A DNA stretch of 63,580 nt, counting the filler, from an uncultured Myxococcia bacterium (GTDB taxonomy: Bacteria; CAZTWC01), in NCBI GenBank assembly GCA_964617105.1. It is 4 parts of 4 records of this genome, joined end to end, with 100 filler letters (N's around TTAATTAATTAA, not from the genome) between each part and the next. Parts side by side here need not be neighbours in the genome. Positions count along the whole stretch, not along the records: positions 1 to 15,989 come from CAZTWC010000061.1; 3 more parts are not named here. One strand, 5' to 3'. A model generated the notes under the pieces. That model had not been told where the DNA came from and did no database searches. It saw only the letters and a list, made by a program, of their open reading frames with translations. Made by a program: the position numbers and the translations under genes. Positions 4,088 through 48,089 of this stretch are shown here, piece by piece (the first letter of the stretch is position 1; each line of letters begins with the position of its first letter).

Positions 4088-4186
4088 TTCTTGTCCACGC
4101 CCCTTCTTATGTGAATTTTCAGATGCTAACTAAAATAGTGTCCATATAAGGATGCTACTCTTAACATAATGAAACCTGGAGGTTTT

Positions 4187-5515
4187 ATGAATTTGTATGG
4201 CAAAAGTTTTTTTGTTTTGCTTGGTTTATCGACTTTATTACTAGTGGCCGCCTGCACCAGAAAAATTATCGAAACAGATATTATCCAGTACCCAGCCCAG
4301 ATTATCCCATTTCACCCTGAGAGGCAGAGGATTACTCCCCTCAATATCAAGTTCGGTCTGACTCTGGAAGAGGTGCGTGACCATACCGGACAGGCCACCT
4401 CAATAGCCCCGCTAATCACCTATAAACTGAAAAAGCAATTACAAAAGTTAGATCGATTCAACCTCTATCAGGGTGTTCCAACAGGAGATAAAAAGGTCAA
4501 AACTGGCCACCAAAAAAGCCCGGCAAAACTGAAAAAAACCAACGATGCCGTCCAGAAAACCGTACCAAACGATGGGAACAAAAATGAGGGTGATAAAAAT
4601 AAAACCAAGGTTAAACCCAAAAAAACAAAGCAAAAGAGAGAGCATAAAAAGAAACAGTCTGCCGCCATCAATTTAAAAGATTTTGATTTCAGCCTCCAGG
4701 GAGATATTAAAAGTATAGACGATAACAGCATTAATTTTTCTTATAACCTGGTAAATGCCAAATCGGGACAAATATTTTTTGCCGGGGCCCAAAAAATAAG
4801 TTATCAAAAAGTTGGGCAAGAACCAAAACCGATTAAAAAAACCGGGCCCGGCCAAAAAAAATCCCTGACCGAAACCGCCCCGGACACAAAATCAGAGATA
4901 AAAACACCGGAGCAAAAGGATGGAGAAAACCCTCAAACTAATAAAAAGAGAGAGCGTAAAAAACCAGGCAAAAGGCGCAAGGGAAAAATCAATCGCCTGC
5001 AAGAGGAGATGAAGGCTGTCAAATCCGATATAAGAAACCTTTCGAATGAATTGAAGACGGATTTGGTTAAAGTCGGTCTGGAACTTAACAATGTCAAAGA
5101 GTGGATGACCAAAAAAATGGCGCAAGTAGAACAAAAATTAACCTCCGAAATAGCCAAACAGAGGAAAGCAAAAAAAGTCCGTTTCACCATCTCTGACTCA
5201 GATATCGATAAAATTGCCAACACTATCACCTCAGCCCTTCCTAACCGGAATAAATTCAAACAGGGCAAGGTTCTCAAGCGTCAAGGAAACTCACTGGTAA
5301 TCAATTTGGGAAGTCAAGACCAATTAACCCAGGGTCTCAATCTGCTGGTGGTTTCTCCCCAGGAGGTTGTGGTGGACATAAAGGATGGGAAAACTGTAAG
5401 AAACAAGGTGTACCTGGCTGAAATTTATGTAACCAATGTTTCAAAGCAGAATGCCGATTGCATTATCTATAAAGGTAGTGACGTCAAGGCTGGTGACCTG
5501 GTGCTGGTCAAGTAG
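4187..5515 (+). CDS. Lipoprotein with Lys-rich insertions, coiled coil and FlgT-C-like C-terminal beta domain
   Basis: GGAGG RBS before ATG 4187; lipobox LVAA-C; C-terminal GKVLKRQGNSLVINLGSQD...IYVTNVS...VKAGDLV resembles FlgT/CsgG-associated C-terminal domains (recognised by eye). Confidence 0.55.
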   Translation: MNLYGKSFFVLLGLSTLLLVAACTRKIIETDIIQYPAQIIPFHPERQRITPLNIKFGLTLEEVRDHTGQATSIAPLITYKLKKQLQKLDRFNLYQGVPTGDKKVKTGHQKSPAKLKKTNDAVQKTVPNDGNKNEGDKNKTKVKPKKTKQKREHKKKQSAAINLKDFDFSLQGDIKSIDDNSINFSYNLVNAKSGQIFFAGAQKISYQKVGQEPKPIKKTGPGQKKSLTETAPDTKSEIKTPEQKDGENPQTNKKRERKKPGKRRKGKINRLQEEMKAVKSDIRNLSNELKTDLVKVGLELNNVKEWMTKKMAQVEQKLTSEIAKQRKAKKVRFTISDSDIDKIANTITSALPNRNKFKQGKVLKRQGNSLVINLGSQDQLTQGLNLLVVSPQEVVVDIKDGKTVRNKVYLAEIYVTNVSKQNADCIIYKGSDVKAGDLVLVK

Positions 5516-5674: not shown

Positions 5675-7156
5675 ATGAAAGTGAATGAATACGATTTTGT
5701 CTCTTTAGAGGCGATTAAAAACTGGATAGGAGGCAAATGGGTTAATCCGGTGGAAGGCCAAAGCATGGAGGTTATTAATCCCCGTTATGGCAAATCCTTC
5801 TGCCAACTGGCGGCCAGTGACGCTCAAGACGTGGAGATGGCTGTCCAGGCAGCCAAAGAAGCCTTTCCTGGTTGGCGGAATACCCCTATCAAAGAACGGG
5901 CCCAGGTGCTCTACCAGTTCAAATATTTGATTCAGCGAGACGCTGAAGAATTGGCCTGGCTGATCTCCCACGAAAACGGTAAAACTTTTGCCGAAGCGCA
6001 GGCCAGCGTAGCCAAAACAGTGGAATGCCTGGAGTTGGGATGCTCTATTCCTAATATTCAAACTAACCACACTCTCTATGTCAGCCGGGGGGTATCCTGT
6101 TCGGTGAATCACGAACCTCTGGGAGTGTGCGCCGGCGTTACCCCTTTCAATTTCCCCCTGATGGTGCCCATGTGGATGCTACCACAGGCGCTGGTGGCGG
6201 GTAACACCTTTATCCTCAAACCTTCCGAGCAGGTGCCGGTATCGATTGCCCGCCTGGCCGAACTGCTGGATGAAGCGGGTTTGCCCAAAGGAGTTTTCAA
6301 CATTGTCAACGGAGCCCGCCCGCCGGTGGAAGCCCTGGTGGACCATCCTGAAATCAAAGCCATGGCCTTTGTTGGATCTACACCGGTAGCCCAATCTCTC
6401 TATGCCCGGGGGGCAAAACTAGGCCGGCCCATGCTCTGCCTGGGCAGCGCCAAAAATCACTTGATCATGGTACCTGACGCTGATCCGGATATGACTGCTA
6501 ACGATGTGGTGCGCTCCTTTTTCGGCATGTCTGGTCAACGCTGCATGGCTGCAACTGTGCTGGTGGGTGTAGGTAATATTGATCATATCCTGGAAAAAAT
6601 CCTCCAGGAAACTAAAAAGATTAAACTCGGTGTTGATATGGGACCATTGATCAATGAAGCGGCAATCTCCCGCATCAACACTATTGTGGAAAATACCCTC
6701 AATGCAGGCGCCACCCTGCTTTTAGACGGTAGAGGAACACAGGTTGAGAGTGCTGCCCAGGGCTATTGGACCGGTCCCACTATCCTGGACAATGTAACTC
6801 CCCAAATGCCCGCCTATACCGATGAAGTGTTCGGTCCAGTAATGAGTATCGTGCGGGTAAAAACTCTGGATGAAGCAATTGAGATCGAAAACAATAACAT
6901 TTTTGGCAACGGCGGTTCTATCTACACCTCTTCCGGCGCCACCGCCAACTATGCGGCCCAGCGGATAAACTCCGGCATGGTAGGGATCAACATCGGCATC
7001 CCGGTGCCCCGCGAACCTTTTGCCTTTGGGGGCTGGGAACTCAGTAAATTTGGACATGGCGATATTACCGGCGAAGACGGTTACCGTTTTTGGACCCGGC
7101 CCCGCAAATTGACAACCAAGTGGGCGCTGCAACCAGATGCAACCTGGATGAGTTAA
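5675..7156 (+). CDS. mmsA: CoA-acylating (methyl)malonate-semialdehyde dehydrogenase
   Basis: ALDH fold: TPFNFPLMVPMW, LKPSEQ, FVGST, GQRCMA (catalytic Cys), EVFGPV, GMVGINIGIPVP. Confidence 0.9.
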   Translation: MKVNEYDFVSLEAIKNWIGGKWVNPVEGQSMEVINPRYGKSFCQLAASDAQDVEMAVQAAKEAFPGWRNTPIKERAQVLYQFKYLIQRDAEELAWLISHENGKTFAEAQASVAKTVECLELGCSIPNIQTNHTLYVSRGVSCSVNHEPLGVCAGVTPFNFPLMVPMWMLPQALVAGNTFILKPSEQVPVSIARLAELLDEAGLPKGVFNIVNGARPPVEALVDHPEIKAMAFVGSTPVAQSLYARGAKLGRPMLCLGSAKNHLIMVPDADPDMTANDVVRSFFGMSGQRCMAATVLVGVGNIDHILEKILQETKKIKLGVDMGPLINEAAISRINTIVENTLNAGATLLLDGRGTQVESAAQGYWTGPTILDNVTPQMPAYTDEVFGPVMSIVRVKTLDEAIEIENNNIFGNGGSIYTSSGATANYAAQRINSGMVGINIGIPVPREPFAFGGWELSKFGHGDITGEDGYRFWTRPRKLTTKWALQPDATWMS

Positions 7157-7176
7157 TAGAGAATTTGGAGGATATA

Positions 7177-8049
7177 ATGGCAAACAAAGTTATCTGTGGC
7201 ATGATTCAATGTAAAAACGTGATCAACGACAATACCACGCCGGTAAAGCAAGTAAAAAAGGCGATGTTTGAGGCCCACGTCCCTTTTATCGAAGAGGCTG
7301 GTAAAAAGGGAGTGCAGATTTTGGGATTGCAAGAGATTTTCGATGGCCCCTATTTCTGCCCCAGCCAGGATGCTCGCTGGTACGAAGCGGCCGAGCCGGT
7401 GCCAGGCCCTACGGTTGAGCGCTGCGCTGAATTCGCCAAAAAATATTCAATGGTGATGGTGGTGCCCATCTACGAAAAAGTGATGAGCGGGGTTTATTAC
7501 AACACCGCCGCAGTGCTGGATGCTGATGGCACCTATTTGGGCAAATACCGTAAAATCCATATCCCTCAGGTGGCTGGTTTTTGGGAAAAATTCTTTTTTA
7601 AACCTGGCAACCTGGGTTACCCGATTTTCAAAACCAGGTACGCCAAAGTTGGAGTCTATATCTGTTACGACCGCCACTTTCCCGAAGGCACCCGTTTGTT
7701 AGGCTTAAACGGTGCTGAAATCGTATTTAATCCTTCCGCCACTGTGGCCGGGCTCTCTCAATACCTATGGCAACTGGAGCAACCCGCTCATGCAGTTGCC
7801 AACGGCTATTTCATGGGCTGTTCCAACCGGGTGGGAGAGGAAGCACCCTGGAATATCGGCAAATTTTACGGCACCAGTTACTTTGTCAATCCCAGAGGCG
7901 AAATAATCGCCAAAGCCAGCGAGGATGAAAGTGAACTGGTAACCACCGAGGTTGACCTGGATATGATCGACCAGGTACGCAATACCTGGCAGTTTTATCG
8001 TGACAGGCGGCCAGAGACTTACGAAAATATGACCAAACTTTTACCGTAG
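7177..8049 (+). CDS. pydC: Beta-ureidopropionase (nitrilase superfamily)
   Basis: Glu-Lys-Cys triad (LQEIF, YRKIHIP, ICYDRHFPE), FWEKFFFKPGN, WQFYRDRRPE; GGAGG RBS before ATG 7177; pyd operon context. Confidence 0.88.
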   Translation: MANKVICGMIQCKNVINDNTTPVKQVKKAMFEAHVPFIEEAGKKGVQILGLQEIFDGPYFCPSQDARWYEAAEPVPGPTVERCAEFAKKYSMVMVVPIYEKVMSGVYYNTAAVLDADGTYLGKYRKIHIPQVAGFWEKFFFKPGNLGYPIFKTRYAKVGVYICYDRHFPEGTRLLGLNGAEIVFNPSATVAGLSQYLWQLEQPAHAVANGYFMGCSNRVGEEAPWNIGKFYGTSYFVNPRGEIIAKASEDESELVTTEVDLDMIDQVRNTWQFYRDRRPETYENMTKLLP

Positions 8050-8065
8050 CGTTGGGAGGAGTTAA

Positions 8066-9448
8066 ATGAGCATTTTAATTAAAAATGGTCAAATCATTAC
8101 CGCGTTTAAAAAATATCGGGCCGATATTCTGGTGGATGGAGAAAAAATAGTTAAAATAGGTCAAAACCTGCCCTCCACCGGGGTGGAGAGGGTCATAGAC
8201 GCAGAGGATAAACTGGTGATCCCTGGCGGCGTGGATCCACACACCCATCTGGACCTGCCATTTATGGGCACTGTTACCCGGGACGACTTTGCCAGCGGCA
8301 CTATTGCCGCAGCAGCCGGCGGTACCACCACTATCATCGATTTCGCCATACCTGCCAAAGAGGAGCCTCTTGGTAGTGCAGCGGACACCTGGCGCCAAAA
8401 GGCAGACGGAAAAGTGGCCACCGACTATTCCCTCCATATGGCAGTTACCTGGTGGAATGATGCTGTGGCCGAGGAGTTGCCCTCCATGATGGAGCGGGGC
8501 ATCTCCAGTTTCAAGGTATTTTTAGCCTACAAGGGAGCCATTGGCATTGATGACGCCCAGATGTACGAAATCATGGCCGCAGCCAAGAAATTGGGCGCCC
8601 TGGTAATGGTGCACGCTGAAAACGCCGAATTGGTCTGGCAACTGCAACAAAAACTGCTCAAAGAGGGCAAAACCGAGCCTATATTTCATGCACGCTCCCG
8701 CCCACCATTTGTGGAAGGAGAGGGGACCCACCGCTCAATTACCATGGCCCGGGTTCACGATATGCCGGTCTATTTTGTCCATATGAGCGCTGCCGATGCC
8801 CTGGAAAAAGTGCGGGATTCCTTCTTTCGGGGAGAGAAAGCCATTGCTGAAACCTGTCCCCAGTACCTGCTGCTGGACGAGAGTTACTATCAGCGTTCCG
8901 GCTGGCAAGGCGCCAAGTGGGTAATGTCGCCGCCTCTTCGCTCCCGCGAACACTGCAAGGCTTTGTGGGCCGGCATCAAAGGTGGACTGATAAAAACCAT
9001 TGGCACTGACCATTGCTCCTTTGACTTCAAAGGACAAAAAGATATGTTCGGCAAAAAAGATTTCTCGGTAATCCCTAACGGCATCCCCGCCATCCAGGAC
9101 CGGCTTAGTTTAATATACACCTATGGCGTACTGGCCGGTCAAATCGATGTGTGCCGTTGGGTAGAGTTATGCTGTTCCAATCCCGCCCGTATATTTGGCC
9201 TATATCCACGCAAAGGGATCATTAAAAAAGGCTCTGATGCCGATATAGTGATTTGGGATCCAGATTGGGAAGGAGTTTTGAGTGCTGAAACCCAGTTTCA
9301 TAAAAACGACTACAATGCTTTTGAAGGCTTCAAGGTTAAAGGACGGCCCCATATTGTTACCCTACGGGGAAAAGTTATCTGCGAGCAGGGCCAATATACT
9401 GGCCAGACCGGTGACGGTAAATTTTTATCCCGAGGACCATTATACTGA
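8066..9448 (+). CDS. hydA: Dihydropyrimidinase
   Basis: PGGVDPHTH metal motif, GGTTTIIDF, SFKVFLAY, HAEN, ETCPQYL, SPPLR, GTDHC, GSDADIVIWDP. Confidence 0.93.
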   Translation: MSILIKNGQIITAFKKYRADILVDGEKIVKIGQNLPSTGVERVIDAEDKLVIPGGVDPHTHLDLPFMGTVTRDDFASGTIAAAAGGTTTIIDFAIPAKEEPLGSAADTWRQKADGKVATDYSLHMAVTWWNDAVAEELPSMMERGISSFKVFLAYKGAIGIDDAQMYEIMAAAKKLGALVMVHAENAELVWQLQQKLLKEGKTEPIFHARSRPPFVEGEGTHRSITMARVHDMPVYFVHMSAADALEKVRDSFFRGEKAIAETCPQYLLLDESYYQRSGWQGAKWVMSPPLRSREHCKALWAGIKGGLIKTIGTDHCSFDFKGQKDMFGKKDFSVIPNGIPAIQDRLSLIYTYGVLAGQIDVCRWVELCCSNPARIFGLYPRKGIIKKGSDADIVIWDPDWEGVLSAETQFHKNDYNAFEGFKVKGRPHIVTLRGKVICEQGQYTGQTGDGKFLSRGPLY

Positions 9449-9553
9449 ATCTAAAATTGCAAGTTGACCCACCAATATCGGTTGTGGAATCCTGGAAAGA
9501 TTGCCGATTTTTTGGTCAAATATCCTTGGCAATTTGAGATAGGGAGAGAAAAA

Positions 9554-10852
9554 ATGAATAACCACCAATTGACGGCCAACCAGGTTCGCCAACTTCATGA
9601 CCAATACACCTTTAGTACCATTAACTATTACCAGGAACCCCTGGTTATTACCGAAGGGAATGGGGTCTATGTCAAAGACCTGACCGGACAAGAGTACCTT
9701 GATTTTTTTGGAGGTATCCTCACGGTTTCTATAGGTCACTGTCACCCAAAAATCACCAGATCTATCAAGGAACAGACCGACAAACTGCACCACATATCTA
9801 CGCTGTACCCAACCCTGCCTATGGTCCAGTTGGCAGAGAAACTAGCCCAAATTACTCCGGGCAAACTGAAAAAAACTTTCTTTACCGCATCCGGCACCGA
9901 AGCCGATGAAACCGCGGTTATGCTGGCTTTCAGCCATACTGGCAGCAATGAACTTATTGCTTTGCGCCACGGTTATTCAGGACGTTCAGCTCTGGCCCAG
10001 TCGCTGATGGGACACGCTTCCTGGCGCTGCCTTCCCACCCAAATCCCGGGAATTAAGCATGCCCACAATCCTTACTGTTACCGCTGCGCTATGGGATTGA
10101 CCTATCCCAACTGCGACCTGAAATGCGCCACCGATATAGAGGAGTTGATCCAAACTACCACCACTGGCAAAATTGCTGGTATGCTGGCCGAACCTATTCA
10201 GGGAGTGGGTGGATTTATTGTTCCTCCTCCCGATTACTTTAAAGTGGCCGTGGATATTGTTCGGAAATATGGTGGCATTTTTATCTGTGACGAAGTGCAG
10301 ACCGGCTTTGGCCGCACCGGAGAAAAGATGTTCGGCATCGAACACTGGCAGGTGGAACCAGAAATTATCACCATGGCCAAAGGGATTGCCAACGGACTCC
10401 CCTTAGGCGCTACTATTGCCAACGAAGAGGTAGCCGGGGCCATTCAAGGCTTAACTATCTCCACCTTTGGCGGCAATCCTCTAAGTTGTGCCTCAGCCAA
10501 TGCCACTATCCAGGTTATTCAGCAGGAGAATATCCTCACTCACGTGGCTCAGATGGGCAAACTTTTAAAGGATGGACTGATGGAGTTGCAGGAGAAATAT
10601 CCGGTTATCGGTGATGTCCGGGGCAAAGGACTGATGCTGGCGGTGGAGATTGTAACCGATGAACCAGGCGGAGATCGGACTCCCAATCTGGAAGAAACCG
10701 GACGGATTTTTGAAAAAGCCAGAAAAGAGGGTCTGCTGGTGGGTAAAGGCGGGCTGTACGGCAACGTATTGCGCATAGCTCCGCCCATGAGTATAGACCA
10801 GGCTGGCATCGAATCAGGATTAAAATTGCTGGACCAGGCTTTTGCCTCATAA
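9554..10852 (+). CDS. Class III aminotransferase, probable beta-alanine/beta-aminoisobutyrate aminotransferase (PydD-like)
   Basis: SGTEADE, EPIQGVGG, DEVQTGFGRTG, MAKGIANG (PLP Lys), TFGGNP. ATG 9554 follows GGGAGAG. Substrate inferred from operon context. Confidence 0.85.
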   Translation: MNNHQLTANQVRQLHDQYTFSTINYYQEPLVITEGNGVYVKDLTGQEYLDFFGGILTVSIGHCHPKITRSIKEQTDKLHHISTLYPTLPMVQLAEKLAQITPGKLKKTFFTASGTEADETAVMLAFSHTGSNELIALRHGYSGRSALAQSLMGHASWRCLPTQIPGIKHAHNPYCYRCAMGLTYPNCDLKCATDIEELIQTTTTGKIAGMLAEPIQGVGGFIVPPPDYFKVAVDIVRKYGGIFICDEVQTGFGRTGEKMFGIEHWQVEPEIITMAKGIANGLPLGATIANEEVAGAIQGLTISTFGGNPLSCASANATIQVIQQENILTHVAQMGKLLKDGLMELQEKYPVIGDVRGKGLMLAVEIVTDEPGGDRTPNLEETGRIFEKARKEGLLVGKGGLYGNVLRIAPPMSIDQAGIESGLKLLDQAFAS

Positions 10853-10928
10853 AACTACGATTTACAAGTAAGGGGCCATTCTGGCATCCATCTGATTTGC
10901 TATATTTTTGAGTACGACATAAGGCTTT

Positions 10929-12305
10929 ATGAAAGGTAATCAAATGAGTATCTCATCTAGTAATGAAAACAGTGTTAACGGGTTAAAAAAGAACCTCAAC
11001 CTGCAGTCGGCTATGGATGAAGCCTCCAGGTGCCTGCTCTGTCACGATGCCCCCTGCAGCCAGCAATGCCCGGCCGGAACTGACCCGGCTAAATTTATCC
11101 GGAAAATCCATTTGCTAAATTTTAAAGGAGCGGCTCGCACTATTCTTACCAACAACCCCTTGGGCGGAGTTTGCGGACTGGTATGCCCCACCGATAAACT
11201 CTGCGCCCAGGGCTGCTCCCGGGCCGGCCTGGACAAGCCTATCAAAATTGGTGCTCTGCAAAAATTTGCCGTTGATTACGGCCGTTCAAGAGGATTTAAA
11301 ATTCCTCTGCCAAATATAGATAAAAACTCTGGCAAAAAAGTAGCCATTATCGGCGCCGGACCCTGCGGCCTGTCGGCAGCCAGGGAGTTAGCGCTTTTAG
11401 GACACCAGGTGACCATATTTGAAACTAAAGAACAGGCCGGAGGGATCTTGCGCTATGGAGTTCCCGAGTTTCGTTGCCAGACGGTTGACCTGGACCAGGA
11501 TCTGGCCGATATTTTGACCAAAGAGATCTGCTTAAAGACCAATCACCCTATCCAGGGAGAAAATGCGGTAACAGGACTGTTAGAGCAAGGTTTTCAGGCA
11601 GTATTAGTGGCCGTGGGGCTCCAAAAGCAACATAACCTGAACCTCCCTGGCTCTGACCTGGAGGGGGTGACAGATTCCGCCAATTTCCTCTGCTCCGCCA
11701 AAATAGATGGGGCAAACGGGGAAGCGGCAAAAATGGTAGCCAATAAAAACGTGGCCATTATCGGCGGCGGCTCGGTGGCTATGGATGCAGCCTGCACTGC
11801 CAGATATCTGGGCGCCAAAAAAATTTACGCCATCAGCCTGGAGGCTTTGCAAGAGTTGCCAGCCGCTGAAACCGACCTGGAATTAGCCCGGGCCAACCAT
11901 ATTATCTTCAAAAGCCAGTGTATAGTGGAAAATATTAAAGGTGAAAACAATATAGTCACCCAAATAGATGGGGTTGAATGTGAGTGGATAGAGCCGGGAA
12001 TATTACTTCCGCACAACGCTCGTCCCATCCCGGATACTAATTTTAGCATTAAGGTGGGAGCGGTAATCCAGGCTATTGGCGCCGGTGTGGATGAAATAAA
12101 TCAGGAGATTTTCGCTTCACTTAATAAACTTAATATATTTAATAAACAAGGCAACTTAATAGAAACCGATGATGACAGTTTAGCCACCTCAAGTCCCGGG
12201 ATCTTCGCTGGCGGCGACATCTCCAGAGGAGCATCCACAGTGGTGGAAGCGGTAAGAGACGGTAAAAATGCTGCTGTGGCGATCAACAAGTATCTTCAAG
12301 ATTGA
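10929..12305 (+). CDS. preT: Dihydropyrimidine dehydrogenase subunit PreT (GltD-like flavoprotein)
   Basis: EASRCLLCHDAPCSQQCP and CGLVCPTDKLC Fe-S motifs; GAGPCG and GGGSVAMD dinucleotide motifs; FAGGD; directly upstream of preA. Alternative start 10944. Confidence 0.9.
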   Translation: MKGNQMSISSSNENSVNGLKKNLNLQSAMDEASRCLLCHDAPCSQQCPAGTDPAKFIRKIHLLNFKGAARTILTNNPLGGVCGLVCPTDKLCAQGCSRAGLDKPIKIGALQKFAVDYGRSRGFKIPLPNIDKNSGKKVAIIGAGPCGLSAARELALLGHQVTIFETKEQAGGILRYGVPEFRCQTVDLDQDLADILTKEICLKTNHPIQGENAVTGLLEQGFQAVLVAVGLQKQHNLNLPGSDLEGVTDSANFLCSAKIDGANGEAAKMVANKNVAIIGGGSVAMDAACTARYLGAKKIYAISLEALQELPAAETDLELARANHIIFKSQCIVENIKGENNIVTQIDGVECEWIEPGILLPHNARPIPDTNFSIKVGAVIQAIGAGVDEINQEIFASLNKLNIFNKQGNLIETDDDSLATSSPGIFAGGDISRGASTVVEAVRDGKNAAVAINKYLQD

Positions 12306-12325
12306 TTTATGAAGGAGTTGAGATA

Positions 12326-13534
12326 ATGAAAAACAACAATCGTCTGGCAATTAACTTTTGCGGCGTAGAATTTGAAAATCCTTTTTGTCTGTCTTCATCA
12401 CCTGTATCCAACACCGCTGAAATGGTAGAACGGGCCTATGATGCCGGCTGGGGCGGAGTGGTGTTTAAAACCGTGGGCCGGGATTTACGGATCACCCATC
12501 CTTCGCCAAGATTGAACGCCTACCATTACCAGGAAAAACGGGTGGTGGGATTACAAAACGTAGAGATGATCAGCGACCGCACCCTGGAAGAAAACCTTAA
12601 AGATATCACCTATTTGAAAAAGAAATATCCCAACCGGGTGCTGATTGTCAGCATAATGGGGCTAAAAGAGGACGACTGGTCAGACCTGGCCCATCGTTGC
12701 CAGGATGCCGGCGGCGACCTGCTGGAGTTAAACTTTTCCTGCCCGCAGATGGCCTATGAAGGTACCGGTTCCGATGTGGGCAAAGACGAAGACCTGATTG
12801 AAAAATTTACTGTGGCCTGTAAAAAGGTGACCAGCATACCGATTATCGCCAAGATGACCCCTAATGTCACCGACATGACCCTGCCGGCTCTGGCGGCTAA
12901 ACGGGGCGGAGCAGATGCTATCTCCGCTATCAATACCATCAAATGTATATCTGGCATAGATATCGACAAATTTATTCCCCTGCCCAACGTGGATGGCAAA
13001 TCCACGGTCAGCGGTTTTTCCGGCCCTTCGGCCAAACCCATAGGGCTCCGATTTATCTCTGATTTGGCCAGGGAACAGCAACTAAATCTTCCCCTGTCAG
13101 GCATGGGCGGCATTGTCACCTGGATAGATGCGCTGCACTATATTCTGCTGGGCGCCTCCACCATACAGGTAACTACCAGTATTATGCGCTACGGATACAG
13201 AATAGTGGAAGAGATGATCGAAGGGCTGTCAGACTACATGGAAGAAAAAGGGTTTGACTCTATCGATCAGGTGTGCGGTAAAGCGCTGGAAAACCTGGTC
13301 ACCCCCGACCTGCTTAACCACGGAGTAGAAGCCCGCAGTCAAATAGATAGGGATCTCTGCCTGGGTTGCGGCCAGTGTTACATCACCTGCCAGGATGCTG
13401 GAAACCAGGCCATTACCCTGGGAGAAGACCGTAAACCCACAGTAGATGAAGATCGCTGTTTCGGCTGCCTGATGTGTAAACATATCTGCCCGGTTTGGGA
13501 CTGCATCTCCTATAAAATGGTGGCGCGACAATAA
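12326..13534 (+). CDS. preA: Dihydropyrimidine dehydrogenase subunit PreA
   Basis: ELNFSCPQ active site, KMTPNVT, AINTI, SGMGGI, two C-terminal CxxCxxCxxxC 4Fe-4S motifs; AAGGAG RBS before ATG 12326. Confidence 0.93.
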   Translation: MKNNNRLAINFCGVEFENPFCLSSSPVSNTAEMVERAYDAGWGGVVFKTVGRDLRITHPSPRLNAYHYQEKRVVGLQNVEMISDRTLEENLKDITYLKKKYPNRVLIVSIMGLKEDDWSDLAHRCQDAGGDLLELNFSCPQMAYEGTGSDVGKDEDLIEKFTVACKKVTSIPIIAKMTPNVTDMTLPALAAKRGGADAISAINTIKCISGIDIDKFIPLPNVDGKSTVSGFSGPSAKPIGLRFISDLAREQQLNLPLSGMGGIVTWIDALHYILLGASTIQVTTSIMRYGYRIVEEMIEGLSDYMEEKGFDSIDQVCGKALENLVTPDLLNHGVEARSQIDRDLCLGCGQCYITCQDAGNQAITLGEDRKPTVDEDRCFGCLMCKHICPVWDCISYKMVARQ

Positions 13535-13572
13535 TACCAACTTCCCGTACATTGATTAAAAAAGGTAAACCG

Positions 13573-14601
13573 ATGAAAGCAATGGTATTGCCTGCGATTT
13601 GTAATTTGGCAGAAAACCCCACTCCCTTAAAATTGCAGGATATCCCTATGCCGCAACCTGGAAAAGGGGAAATTCTGGTCAAAATTTCCGCCTGCGGAGT
13701 CTGCCATACAGAATTGGACGAAATAGAAGGCCGAACCCCGCCGCCATCTCTGCCCATAGTACTGGGACACCAGGCGGTTGGTAAAGTAGAAAAAATCGGC
13801 CCTGAATGTGGAGACTTTTCCCTTGGAGACCGGGTGGGAATTGCCTGGATCTATTCTGCCTGTGGTCAATGCCAACTCTGCCGGGAGGGTAAAGAGAACC
13901 TGTGCTCCCAATTCACCGCCACCGGGCGGGATGTCAATGGTGGGTATAGCCAATATATGAAGGTAAAGGAAAAATTTGCCTATCCTATCCCCCCTTTTTT
14001 CTCAAACAGTGAAGCCGCCCCCCTGTTGTGTGCCGGCGCTATCGGGTACCGCTCTTTGCGTCTCAGCAACCTGGCCGCTGAAAAAACCCTGGGCTTGACC
14101 GGTTTTGGCGCCTCTGGACACCTGGTAATGAAAATTGTGATGCATAAGTACCCAGGTAGTGATATATTTGTCTTTGCCCGCAGCCCTAAAGAGCGGGAAT
14201 TCGCTCTGGAATTGGGAGCTGTCTGGGCTGGAGATATTGGTGCGAGAGCCCCGGAACTATTGGACACCATTATCGACACTACTCCAGCGTGGAAGCCGGT
14301 GGTAGAAGCCCTGGCCAATCTAACCCCCGGCGGCAGGCTGGTAATCAACGCTATCCGCAAAGAAGAGATCGACAAGGATTATCTACTCAATCTGGACTAT
14401 CCCGCCCATTTGTGGATGGAAAAAGAGATTAAAAGCGTAGCCAATGTTGAACGGCATGATGTAAGGGAATTTCTCCAAATAGCCGCAGAGATGAAAATCA
14501 AGCCGGAGTTGCAGGAATACCCCCTCCAGGATGCCAACCAGGCTCTTATGGAACTGAAGGAAAGAAAAATCCGCGGCGCAAAAGTGCTGGTTTTAGATTA
14601 A
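13573..14601 (+). CDS. Zinc-dependent alcohol dehydrogenase family protein
   Basis: CGVCHTELD, GHQAVG, structural Zn CGQCQLC...C, APLLCAGAIG, GFGASGH. Confidence 0.9.
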   Translation: MKAMVLPAICNLAENPTPLKLQDIPMPQPGKGEILVKISACGVCHTELDEIEGRTPPPSLPIVLGHQAVGKVEKIGPECGDFSLGDRVGIAWIYSACGQCQLCREGKENLCSQFTATGRDVNGGYSQYMKVKEKFAYPIPPFFSNSEAAPLLCAGAIGYRSLRLSNLAAEKTLGLTGFGASGHLVMKIVMHKYPGSDIFVFARSPKEREFALELGAVWAGDIGARAPELLDTIIDTTPAWKPVVEALANLTPGGRLVINAIRKEEIDKDYLLNLDYPAHLWMEKEIKSVANVERHDVREFLQIAAEMKIKPELQEYPLQDANQALMELKERKIRGAKVLVLD

Positions 14602-14623
14602 CAAGTGATTAAGGAGAAGAACT

Positions 14624-15607
14624 ATGAATACCAATTTATCGGGCAAAGATTATATTTCTACCCAGGACTGGACCAGAGAAGAGTTGGATACTGCCCTGGA
14701 CGTTTCTTTTGACCTCAAACGCCGGTTTGCCCTGGGAGAACCACACCGGCTGCTGCAGGACAAGACCCTGTTTATGCTCTTTTTTGACAAATCCACCCGC
14801 ACCCGTAATTCCTTTGAAGCCGGTATAACCCAACTAGGCGGTCATGCTCACGACCTGACCCCGGAAGTGATGCAGATATCTCACGGTGAATCCCCCAAGG
14901 ATACCGGCATCATTCTTTCCCGTTACGGTCACGGCATTGCTATCCGCCACGATTTGGTTCCCGGTGAGGGCAACGCCTATATGCGGGAGGTGGCAAAATA
15001 CGCCAACCGGCCAGTGCTCAACATGCAGTGCGACATCGATCATCCCTGCCAGACCCTGGCTGACATTATGACCATCAAAGAAAAATTTCCCGGTGATCTG
15101 CGGGGTAGAAAAATTGTAGTAAGTTGGGCCTTTACCAAGAGTTATGCCAAACCTCTCTCAGTGCCTCAGGGACTGATCATGTTGATGCCCCGGTTTGGCC
15201 TGGATGTGACCCTGGTGCATCCACCAGAGTTTAGGTTGATGCCCGAGATCATGGAGCAGGCCAAGCAAAATGCCCAGGAAAACGGAGTGAAATTCGAAGT
15301 GGCAGACAACATGGACGATGCTTTTGAAGATGCCGATATAGTCTATCCCAAGAGTTGGGGAGTTTTGGAACTTTTTAAACAGCCCGAAGAGGCGCTAAAA
15401 CTGGCCTGCAAATATGAAGACTGGATCTGCGACCAGCGCCGCATGGATTTGACCAAAAAGAAGAGCATCTACATGCACTGCCTGCCGGCTGAGCGGGGAA
15501 AAGAAGTTACCGATGAAGTAATTGACGGCCCCCATTCAGTTATTTACGATGAAGCGGAAAACCGTCTCCACACTGCCAAAGCACTAATGGCCCTGACCAT
15601 GCAATAG
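14624..15607 (+). CDS. YgeW-like (knotted) carbamoyltransferase
   Basis: Carbamoyl-phosphate motifs STRTR and HPCQ plus MHCLP. Has SYAKPLSVPQG and YPKSW, typical of YgeW-type enzymes, and lacks the OTC DxxxSMG loop. Confidence 0.75.
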   Translation: MNTNLSGKDYISTQDWTREELDTALDVSFDLKRRFALGEPHRLLQDKTLFMLFFDKSTRTRNSFEAGITQLGGHAHDLTPEVMQISHGESPKDTGIILSRYGHGIAIRHDLVPGEGNAYMREVAKYANRPVLNMQCDIDHPCQTLADIMTIKEKFPGDLRGRKIVVSWAFTKSYAKPLSVPQGLIMLMPRFGLDVTLVHPPEFRLMPEIMEQAKQNAQENGVKFEVADNMDDAFEDADIVYPKSWGVLELFKQPEEALKLACKYEDWICDQRRMDLTKKKSIYMHCLPAERGKEVTDEVIDGPHSVIYDEAENRLHTAKALMALTMQ

Positions 15608-15663
15608 AAAGCCAGGCAACAAAATATATCCCGTCCAATGACCAAACCGGGCCAATTATACTT

Positions 15664-15989
15664 ATGGAGAAAAACGCCAGATATCTACTTATAGCCTGCT
15701 CTCTTTTTATTGCTTTGGCTATCACCATTCAATTTTTTCAGGAGGCGTTTTATCCTTTTGAAGTGGAACAAGATGAGGGATATCTGCTCAATTCAGCGGT
15801 GCGGCTGAAAGACGGCAAACCGATCTATACCCCTATAGATCAAGAGCCGAAACTGTTCGTAACCGACTATCCACCGGTTTATATTGCCTTGATGGCTTTT
15901 TTTGTAAAAATCTTCGGTCCCTCTTTTACTCCCGCCCGCATGTTCTCCTTTTTCAGCCTGGTGTTATCTACGCTGATAATCTGGCTGGC
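15664..15989 (+). CDS. Membrane protein, 5' fragment (GT-C/ArnT-like N-terminus), truncated at contig end
   Basis: TM helix, then DEG and YPP motifs and a second TM (ARMFSFFSLV); this order is typical of GT-C fold proteins. Runs into Ns. Confidence 0.5.
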
Positions 15990-16089
15990 NNNNNNNNNNN
16001 NNNNNNNNNNNNNNNNNNNNNNNNNNNNNNNNNTTAATTAATTAANNNNNNNNNNNNNNNNNNNNNNNNNNNNNNNNNNNNNNNNNNNN
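15990..16089. other. Artificial contig spacer
   Basis: N44-TTAATTAATTAA-N44, giving stops in all six frames. Confidence 0.98.
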
Positions 16090-32001: not shown

Positions 32002-32101
32002 NNNNNNNNNNNNNNNNNNNNNNNNNNNNNNNNNNNNNNNNNNNNTTAATTAATTAANNNNNNNNNNNNNNNNNNNNNNNNNNNNNNNNNNNNNNNNNNN
32101 N
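32002..32101. other. Artificial contig spacer
   Basis: N44-TTAATTAATTAA-N44. Confidence 0.98.
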
Positions 32102-47989: not shown

Positions 47990-48089
47990 NNNNNNNNNNN
48001 NNNNNNNNNNNNNNNNNNNNNNNNNNNNNNNNNTTAATTAATTAANNNNNNNNNNNNNNNNNNNNNNNNNNNNNNNNNNNNNNNNNNNN
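47990..48089. other. Artificial contig spacer
   Basis: N44-TTAATTAATTAA-N44. Confidence 0.98.

Follow-up and report, generated by a model that had tools for sequence, protein, structure and literature searches.

A short-form YgeW-type carbamoyltransferase encoded behind a reductive pyrimidine operon in an uncultured Myxococcia bacterium

Introduction

Two studies published in 2025 report that YgeW of Escherichia coli phosphorolyses 2,3-diureidopropionate (PMC12507026; bioRxiv 10.1101/2025.04.24.650524), and one of the two adds that YgeW forms ATP together with YqeA by way of carbamoyl phosphate. The position of attack is given differently in these studies: YgeW removes the 3-(beta-)ureido group according to bioRxiv 10.1101/2025.04.24.650524 and the 2-(alpha-)ureido group according to PMC12507026, and the regiochemistry is still called open in the commentary PMC12990295. 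The same sequence of ureido phosphorolysis, carbamoyl phosphate and ATP is used in the arginine deiminase pathway by ornithine carbamoyltransferase (OTC) and carbamate kinase (bioRxiv 10.1101/2025.04.24.650524). In Rubrobacter, the ureidoglycine carbamoyltransferase Rxyl_2847, which is encoded beside carbamate kinase, replaces a hydrolase in purine catabolism and acts on allantoate in an oxidative route (PMC4016543). Here we analyse a carbamoyltransferase gene (CTase; P0001) at positions 14624 to 15607 on the plus strand of a stretch of 63,580 nucleotides from an uncultured Myxococcia bacterium (assembly GCA_964617105.1), the whole of which is referred to below as the window. The gene follows a predicted reductive pyrimidine operon, and an earlier reading made from the DNA sequence without database searches (hereafter the sequence-only reading) had proposed that its product serves a phosphorolytic route of pyrimidine degradation.

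Among these systems the CTase most resembles E. coli YgeW (YTCase, 3Q98), with which it shares the STRTR, HPxQ, HCLP and YPKSW motifs, a proline-rich loop and membership of one clade (support 100/98), and its orthologues show the neighbourhood of YgeY, SsnA, HyuA and carbamate kinase genes. It differs from this long-form protein in its length (327 versus 396 residues) at 38% identity, in alignment gaps at the positions of the YgeW insertions, in its placement in a pyrimidine operon and in the substitutions P172K and D290E. The acetylornithine carbamoyltransferase (AOTC) of Xanthomonas (3KZK and related structures) is similar in size, shows the knotted-type proline-rich loop and matches the CTase in sequence at about 1e-58; it also has the top query-normalised TM-score among the matches listed (0.90; 2.2e-31, the second-best E-value after the P. 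furiosus OTCase 1a1s). Unlike the CTase, this AOTC is an anabolic enzyme encoded in arginine clusters, and the CTase remains under the cut-off of the AOTC model NF003384 and falls in another clade. With respect to the arginine deiminase pathway, the CTase has no DxxxSMG loop and belongs to a different clade than OTC, and no arginine deiminase was found in the host genome, whereas Rxyl_2847 is ATCase-like rather than YgeW-like. Finally, beta-ureidopropionase acts on N-carbamoyl-beta-alanine, the substrate that had been proposed for the CTase, and a CN_hydrolase-type candidate for it is encoded in the operon; in contrast to the CTase it is a hydrolase of unrelated fold that conserves no energy.

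Results and Discussion

The CTase groups with YgeW

The CTase open reading frame (ORF) comprises 327 codons without an internal stop. Its product contains both Pfam domains of the transcarbamylases (OTCace_N, 5.9e-41, 140 bits, cut-off 29.9; OTCace, 5.9e-40, 137 bits, cut-off 29.4) as well as the carbamoyl-phosphate motifs SxRT, HPxQ and HxLP, and is thus a member of the transcarbamylase superfamily. Direct translation bore out the motifs named in the sequence-only reading, which are STRT (residues 57-60), HPCQ (140-143), HCLP (285-288), SYAKPLSVPQG (173-183) and YPKSW (241-245), and a motif scan of the protein found neither SMG nor the DxxxSMG ornithine loop. The proline-rich loop, WAFTKSYAKPLSVPQ, aligns with that of YgeW and of the family, the first proline being replaced by lysine in this protein only. 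Among solved structures, E. coli YgeW 3Q98 is the best match (1.1e-65), with OTC of P. furiosus and AOTC close behind, and the C-terminal third of the CTase is OTC-like in sequence comparison. All curated NCBIfam carbamoyltransferase models have cut-offs above the score of the CTase, including those for OTC (TIGR00658; 253 bits, cut-off 280.85), AOTC (NF003384; 248 bits, cut-off 288) and PTC (232 bits, cut-off 500).

The family to which the CTase belongs is very large and conserved to an unusual degree. All 8000 of the 8000 scored candidates were retained at E ≤ 1e-20, and matches came from at least 331 species genomes and at least 405 metagenome stretches. The best 120 candidates are 70 to 80% identical to the CTase, one of them being a 245-residue fragment (P0027) that is identical to the window protein, and in the metagenomes no orthologue above 73% identity was found. 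Relatives with 66 to 80% identity occur in many phyla and are named 'ornithine carbamoyltransferase' or 'N-acetylornithine carbamoyltransferase' in the databases. For the phylogeny, neighbouring subfamilies were drawn from a search of 50%-identity representatives and labelled by NCBIfam; a careful IQ-TREE tree was calculated from 58 rows, four long-branch rows having been dropped first, next to a quick tree of 62 rows. The family, the NCBIfam-positive YgeW proteins and E. coli YgeW form one clade of 21 rows in the 58-row tree (ultrafast bootstrap 100, SH-aLRT 98), and the quick tree agrees (SH-aLRT 98). OTC and AOTC fall outside this clade, the NCBIfam-positive AOTCs making up a separate clade in the 58-row tree. 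The CTase pairs with its nearest relatives, L005 and L006 (99/91), and long-form YgeW is nested among the short forms, a placement with weak support. The view that the protein is YgeW-like and neither ArgF nor AOTC therefore stood up to the phylogeny. Judged from the tree, YgeW has in this family a short-form sister or stem group, for which OTC and AOTC are wrong names in public databases.

Orthologues are linked to genes of the reductive uric-acid pathway

We analysed 160 orthologous loci (80 from genomes and 80 from metagenomes; 66 to 78% identity), the neighbouring ORFs of which were clustered and labelled by Pfam and NCBIfam. A YgeY-family M20 hydrolase is encoded near the CTase in 96 of the 160 loci, a pyridoxal-phosphate (PLP) enzyme of about 480 residues, designated PALP_a, in 58 loci and most often two genes upstream, an SsnA-like amidohydrolase in 49, the molybdenum subunit of xanthine dehydrogenase (XDH) in 46 and carbamate kinase in 35, the kinase gene being the immediate next gene in 11 of the 80 genome loci. 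Further neighbours in the 160 loci are the [2Fe-2S] subunit (31), XdhC (29), the FAD subunit (29), a PreA-like protein (27), a second PLP enzyme designated PALP_b (27), and MobA-like and YgfK-like proteins (24 each), and a gene of the HyuA/dihydropyrimidinase (DHPase) type was found within the retrieved flanks in 21. At least one of YgeY, SsnA, XDH, PALP_a and carbamate kinase is present in 119 of the 160 loci, and the same holds for 56 of the 71 loci that have at least 5 kb on both sides. The cluster neighbours are 46 to 52% identical to E. coli YgeY and 39 to 45% to YqeA; three of the four cluster representatives for SsnA reach 32 to 40% identity, and the best match of the fourth is GuaD. 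For five genomes in which the CTase has no uric-acid-type neighbour, SsnA exceeds the cut-off of 444 bits in four and reaches 386 bits in the fifth, and just one of 14 control genomes passes this cut-off. By its annotation, this set of neighbouring genes is that of the reductive uric-acid (2,8-dioxopurine) pathway.

The proposal of a pyrimidine route had been tied beforehand to a linkage of the orthologues with pyd genes. This linkage is missing: a Zn-dependent alcohol dehydrogenase (Zn-ADH) is encoded near the orthologues in none of the 160 loci, and a pyrimidine-specific gene of any kind (CN_hydrolase, methylmalonate-semialdehyde dehydrogenase or aminotransferase) was observed in six, five of them with 28 to 31% identity and the sixth a CN_hydrolase gene at a distance of 9 kb.

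The other pathway genes are dispersed in the host genome

The host genome is 96.5% complete and consists of 489 contigs. It encodes three transcarbamylases, which are a true OTC on contig C5 (420 bits, cut-off 281), a true aspartate carbamoyltransferase (ATCase, PyrB) and the CTase, and a carbamate kinase on contig C209 in an unrelated context (380 bits, arcC cut-off 358), so that the genome-wide search for a separate argF and for a carbamate kinase found both. The SsnA gene (542 bits, cut-off 444) is located on contig C38 beside genes for XDH subunits, XdhC and PreT/PreA-like proteins, and the YgeY gene (351 bits, cut-off 321.5) on contig C459, where it is cut by the contig start. PALP_a (62% identity) is encoded at C78:8453-9880 and PALP_b at C70:6287-7453, both on the minus strand. 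Neither a second YgeW-type gene, nor a long YgeW gene, nor a full-length Amidohydro_3 or UacY-type substitute was found in this 96.5% complete genome. Going by the predicted gene content, the uric-acid pathway is present but dispersed, and no protein other than the CTase is a candidate for its YgeW step.

The DHPase encoded in the window has a mean identity of 40% to 13 reference DHPases (12 from CTase-linked loci, plus E. coli HyuA), as compared to 33% to the same references for a second copy on contig C202. The latter scores 327 bits and lies below the TIGR02033 cut-off, which among the DHPase-type genes scanned in the host (window and C202) is passed by the window copy only. By these comparisons the window DHPase is the best HyuA candidate of the genome, which would give a reason for a co-expression of the CTase with the pyrimidine operon.

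Two substitutions map to the putative substrate pocket

The residues proposed to bind the second substrate in E. coli YgeW are Q160, K270, D124, S200, K203, L331 and E344 (PMC4581275, Table 1), a list that is partly modelled and not crystallographic. The CTase keeps their equivalents, as do no fewer than 118 of 119 family members. The nearby D334 of YgeW corresponds to Glu290 in the window CTase only (codon 290 in HCLPAERG, 15491-15493, plus strand), this position being Asp in 119 of the 119 aligned family members. Among 281 sequences, HCLPAD was found in 244 and HCLPAE in two, namely the window protein and its own fragment P0027, and 35 gave no match to the motif.

Codons 170 to 172 (F-T-K; 15131-15139, plus strand) form the start of the proline-rich loop, which a review names among the specificity-determining loops (PMC4581275); the family has Y-A-P at these positions and E. 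coli YgeW has Y197-S198-P199. Residue 172, the first proline of the loop, adjoins the residue that aligns with S200 of YgeW, one of the proposed substrate residues (PMC4581275). Among the 281 sequences counted, only two distinct ones have a residue other than Pro here, namely the CTase (and P0027) with Lys and L111 with Asn. The L111 locus carries a CN_hydrolase that is 65% identical to that of the window. A link between the loss of Pro172 and CN_hydrolase was dropped as coincidence, the L111 gene being located 9 kb off and past unrelated genes.

Possible functions of the CTase

We consider it probable that the CTase acts in the reductive uric-acid pathway, where it would carry out the YgeW step, and that its gene has moved to the end of the pyrimidine operon. 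This is its likeliest task because SsnA, XDH, YgeY and carbamate kinase are encoded elsewhere in the genome and the CTase is the sole YgeW-type protein. In the proposed reaction, phosphate would attack one ureido group of 2,3-diureidopropionate to yield amino-ureidopropionate and carbamoyl phosphate, and the carbamate kinase encoded on C209 would turn the latter into ATP, CO2 and NH3. The uric-acid cluster, which contains the CTase gene in most genomes, would have been dispersed in this marine bacterium, the CTase gene now closing the reductive pyrimidine operon, and the DHPase of the operon may, as the best HyuA-type hydantoinase candidate of the genome, make the substrate of the CTase. Clade membership, the orthologue neighbourhoods, the other pathway genes of the genome and the operon junction were observed directly; we infer what the substrate of the CTase is, that its gene is transcribed together with the operon and that the DHPase has two roles.

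Several observations weigh against the assignment to the YgeW step. The CTase scores 251 bits with the YgeW model NF005538 (cut-off 453) and 234 bits with the YgeW equivalog TIGR03316 (cut-off 500), with which genuine YgeW representatives reach 557 to 709 bits, and it does not have the extra N- and C-terminal helices of YgeW or the pair of additional helices within the 240's loop (PMC4581275). The AlphaFold2 model of the CTase (mean pLDDT 96.6) gave TM-scores of 0.85 to 0.90 in Foldseek for YgeW, AOTC and OTC alike, so that neither the subfamilies nor the knotted and unknotted transcarbamylases are separated by structure. A uric-acid-type neighbour is missing in 13 of the 71 well-flanked loci. 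The CTase gene itself is located outside any uric-acid cluster, behind a complete pyrimidine operon from which 22 nt separate it and whose raised GC content it shares; 119 of 160 orthologues are linked to uric-acid genes, whereas the window copy has no such linkage, the partner genes being on other contigs. The CTase deviates from the family consensus at six (L148I, Y170F, A171T, P172K, A198V and D290E) of the 151 positions with a conservation of at least 95%, as compared to one in the median member; six or more deviations occur in six of 120 members. Two of these substitutions, P172K and D290E, are found in the window copy only and map to the putative second-substrate pocket. Finally, phosphorolysis at the YgeW step has been shown only for E. 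coli YgeW, and the function of the short forms is predicted.

Some of the same observations would suit the alternative put forward in the sequence-only reading, namely that the CTase phosphorolyses the N-carbamoyl-beta-alanine or N-carbamoyl-beta-aminoisobutyrate produced by the operon DHPase. Carbamoyl phosphate would be formed along with beta-alanine, and carbamate kinase would then recover the ATP that is wasted by the hydrolytic beta-ureidopropionase. The position of the gene at the end of the operon, with its 22-nt spacer, good ribosome-binding site (RBS) and matching GC content, agrees with such a role, and this CTase is the only one placed in a pyrimidine operon among the 161 family loci examined. 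The two pocket substitutions and the presence of carbamate kinase in a genome in which no arginine deiminase was found point in the same direction, as does the study in which YgeW acts on the 3-(beta-)ureido group (bioRxiv 10.1101/2025.04.24.650524): if YgeW attacks there, its natural substrate is a 2-substituted N-carbamoyl-beta-alanine, of which N-carbamoyl-beta-alanine would be the simplest analogue. In the other 2025 study, however, it is the 2-(alpha-)ureido group that YgeW removes (PMC12507026), and the orthologues are not linked to pyrimidine genes, the six matches of any kind being weak or distant. Moreover, the genome has no further YgeW-type or UacY-type gene, and its uric-acid pathway therefore needs the CTase. 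The branch of the CTase (0.13) is not accelerated relative to its nearest relatives (0.10 and 0.15), and L111, the other member without Pro172, still has its CTase gene beside SsnA-like and PLP enzyme genes. A search of the literature, covering main texts available in full and few subscription journals, found no account of beta-ureidopropionate being cleaved by phosphorolysis or of a carbamoyltransferase that acts on beta-alanine. Since the operon already encodes a candidate for the hydrolytic beta-ureidopropionase, phosphorolysis of N-carbamoyl-beta-alanine is a minority possibility, and as the main function of the CTase we regard it as unlikely. Of the earlier interpretation, the YgeW-like nature of the protein and its attachment to the operon have been retained, and the substrate has not, in view of the orthologues without pyd linkage.

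The operon could also serve both lower pathways as a shared ureide operon, in which the CTase takes 2,3-diureidopropionate as well as pyrimidine-derived beta-ureido acids, and the DHPase and the CN_hydrolase also take ureidomethyl-hydantoin or 5-ureido-dihydrouracil, and albizziin. This would fit the fact that the window DHPase is the closest in the genome to the HyuA-type references (40% versus 33%) and, of the two DHPase-type genes scanned, the only one above the TIGR02033 cut-off, and that a DHPase-type gene occurs within the CTase flanks in the 21 loci mentioned above. In L041, L123 and L134, the CTase and carbamate kinase genes are found next to a divergent PreT-PreA-DHPase-aminotransferase set, and the pathway schemes in PMC12507026 suggest that the substrates are close chemical analogues. 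Set against this are the genome's own YgeY and second DHPase-like gene, as well as the fact that the idea concerns one genome and predicted protein substrates; its probability appears low. A further reading, in which the pyrimidine operon acquired the K172/E290 variant for a beta-ureido-acid phosphorylase activity, either alone or besides one on 2,3-diureidopropionate, seems to us rather unlikely, and a phosphorolytic pyrimidine route in any form, as the sole or as a second activity, has taken together a modest chance of being real. An anabolic ornithine or N-acetylornithine carbamoyltransferase is very improbable. It is suggested by the public names of the relatives, by the scores with the OTC (253 bits) and AOTC (248 bits) models and by the OTC-like C-terminal third, but these scores remain under the cut-offs of 281 and 288, the DxxxSMG loop is missing, the tree places the CTase with YgeW and outside OTC and AOTC, and the genome has its true OTC with 420 bits. 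The neighbours are catabolic, with one arginine-type match, an OTC-like gene in L072, in scans that were not aimed at arginine-biosynthesis genes.

The large family that databases list as OTC or AOTC is really a short-form counterpart of YgeW. It marks the recently described reductive uric-acid pathway, with its yield of ATP, in Calditrichota, KSB1, Zixibacteria, Ignavibacteria, Bacteroidota, Acidobacteriota, Sumerlaeota and further lineages that lie beyond the gut taxa for which this pathway was defined. The window CTase offers a natural test case for whether energy conservation at the level of carbamoyl phosphate extends to pyrimidine breakdown, and also for which ureido group is cleaved by YgeW-type enzymes. 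Were it a beta-ureido-acid phosphorylase, reductive pyrimidine degradation would yield ATP via carbamate kinase, and an attack on the 3-(beta-)ureido group by YgeW-type enzymes would be favoured. If it just performs the YgeW step, the outcome is a correction of annotation and a case in which catabolic genes for purines and for pyrimidines share an operon.

The pyrimidine operon and the ADH/CTase junction

The operon starts with the gene for a CoA-acylating (methyl)malonate-semialdehyde dehydrogenase (MMSDH; 5675-7156; TIGR01722, 513 bits, cut-off 448.5), and all of its genes are on the plus strand. It is followed by a CN_hydrolase gene, the candidate for beta-ureidopropionase (7090-8049; CN_hydrolase 5e-63), the top NCBIfam match of which is N-carbamoylputrescine amidase (239 bits, cut-off 410) and the true start of which is probably located later, because the annotated TTG start overlaps the MMSDH gene. 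Then come the dihydropyrimidinase/hydantoinase gene (DHPase; 8066-9448; TIGR02033, 578 bits, cut-off 393), a gene for a class-III aminotransferase that is a candidate beta-alanine aminotransferase (9464-10852; Aminotran_3, 1.8e-100), and the genes for two subunits of dihydropyrimidine dehydrogenase, PreT-like (10929-12305; Fer4_20 and Pyr_redox_2) and PreA (12302-13534; DHO_dh and Fer4_21; NF006183, 550 bits, cut-off 335). It should be noted that the PreA-like protein of the urate cluster in L060 also passes NF006183 (414 bits), so this model cannot tell a pyrimidine role of PreA from a urate role. The last gene ahead of the CTase belongs to the Zn-ADH family (13552-14601; Pfam ADH_N; TIGR02822, 270 bits, cut-off 283.5). 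As annotated, the genes from 5675 to 14601 together constitute a complete reductive pyrimidine pathway, with the CTase as the last gene. The attachment of the CTase to a pyrimidine operon is thus real, the full gene set being located upstream on the same strand.

The distance of 22 nt between the ADH and CTase genes was confirmed by direct reading: the Zn-ADH gene ends at 14601 with the stop codon TAA (14599-14601), the CTase gene begins at 14624, and the spacer (14602-14623, plus strand) contains the RBS AAGGAG (14611-14616), 7 nt ahead of the CTase ATG. The GC content is 0.49 to 0.52 from MMSDH through CTase, as compared to 0.41 to 0.44 in the flanking genes and a genome average of 0.438; it steps from 0.41 to 0.52 at MMSDH and is back at 0.44 in the membrane protein gene after the CTase. 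Counts of promoters and terminators in the region were uninformative, with 15 terminator-like sites versus 13.4 expected from shuffles. The same junction was sought in 40 genome relatives, which yielded kin at the domain level only; four of these genomes carry family-level matches with 60 to 71% identity. In four public runs, marine or seawater, which belong to two studies, contigs bridge the junction with 0 differences, and a binning artefact is therefore not the explanation; some of these runs may be the source samples of this metagenome-assembled genome (MAG), and no RNA run with this sequence was listed. Codons 170 to 172 (three runs) and 290 are also covered with 0 differences by the contigs of these runs.

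The window consists of four MAG contigs (C61, C62, C63 and C65) joined by runs of N at 15990-16089, 32002-32101 and 47990-48089, so gene order across these joints has no meaning. Contig C61, which carries the CTase, stops at 15989. A membrane protein gene, which is not part of the system, starts 56 nt past the CTase (15664-15989, plus strand; weak Pfam match PMT_2, 1.9e-4), and only its 5' part is present, as it is cut by the contig end. A carbamate kinase gene directly downstream of the CTase was rejected, the CTase being the last gene of the unit with no kinase after it because the next ORF is the start of the membrane protein gene and is followed by the contig end. An ORF called at 15664-16041 crosses the N spacer and is an artefact, and the start of an M20/YgeY gene concealed in the 382-nt tail of the contig was dismissed, the best blastx match having E = 0.07. 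The remark in the sequence-only reading that the window contains no carbamate kinase gene is correct, but it says little because the window is a set of joined separate contigs, and the kinase is encoded on C209.

One partly fitting contig of run X5 (90 to 95% alike) skips 123 nt at 15445-15569 inside the CTase gene. It has loose ends on both sides, one of them with 27 letters, and probably stems from a related organism and not from a variant of this genome. Just ahead of the operon is an ORF of 448 codons (4169-5515, plus strand; GC 0.41) with a signal-peptide/lipoprotein-like start and a long lysine-rich middle of low complexity, which matched no Pfam or NCBIfam family.

Additional gene associations

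PALP_a (in L008, L013, L022, L036, L043 and others) matches no NCBIfam model at 1e-40 and, in BLAST at 1e-5, does not match E. coli YgeX; the uric-acid pathway may have in it a non-orthologous diaminopropionate ammonia-lyase. PALP_b is a threonine-synthase-like PLP enzyme (NF006050, 281 to 312 bits), which is often encoded directly downstream of the CTase (L006, L022, L027, L047 and L111), and we know of no described role for it in the uric-acid pathway. A gene for a cytidine/dCMP-deaminase-fold protein of 149 residues is found beside the CTase in L035, L042, L056, L063, L069, L126, L141, L154 and L171, in several purine-type clusters between YgeY and CTase, and could encode a guanine-deaminase-type enzyme.

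A BMC-domain shell protein is encoded in uric-acid-type clusters just upstream of YgeY and CTase in L035, L059, L069 and L072. These loci are from Bacteroidota and Ignavibacteria-type MAGs, and in all but L059 an RnfC/Nuo51-like protein is encoded beside the shell protein, which hints at a microcompartment or an electron-transfer link. An ATCase-like gene with 42 to 43% identity to E. coli PyrB and the HPLPR motif is located beside the CTase and carbamate kinase genes in each of two loci (regions L062:12024-12953, and L072:13235-14158 and 15007-16026), the kinase gene of L072 being 4 kb past the CTase, between the OTC-like and ATCase-like genes. Purine-derived carbamoyl phosphate may feed biosynthesis in these two loci.

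The CTases of the T171 subgroup (8 loci, several of them Sumerlaeota MAGs) are preceded by a gene that we take to be QueH-like and by a gene for a 469-residue protein without a Pfam family. This arrangement looks like lineage synteny, and the 469-residue protein is unrelated to the product of the 448-codon ORF of the window (E ≤ 1e-15). In the Acidobacteriota-type loci L041, L123 and L134, a full uric-acid cluster ends in CTase and carbamate kinase genes, and the next genes, on the opposite strand, encode PreT-like and PreA-like proteins, a DHPase that is 46% identical to that of the window and a class-III aminotransferase. These loci provide a second instance in which reductive genes of the purine type and of the pyrimidine type adjoin each other. 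In the host genome, a gene for a 607-residue fusion of acetate kinase (PF00871) and the PTAC phosphate acyltransferase (PF06130) adjoins the PreT-like/SsnA/XDH cluster (C38:9524-11344, minus strand).

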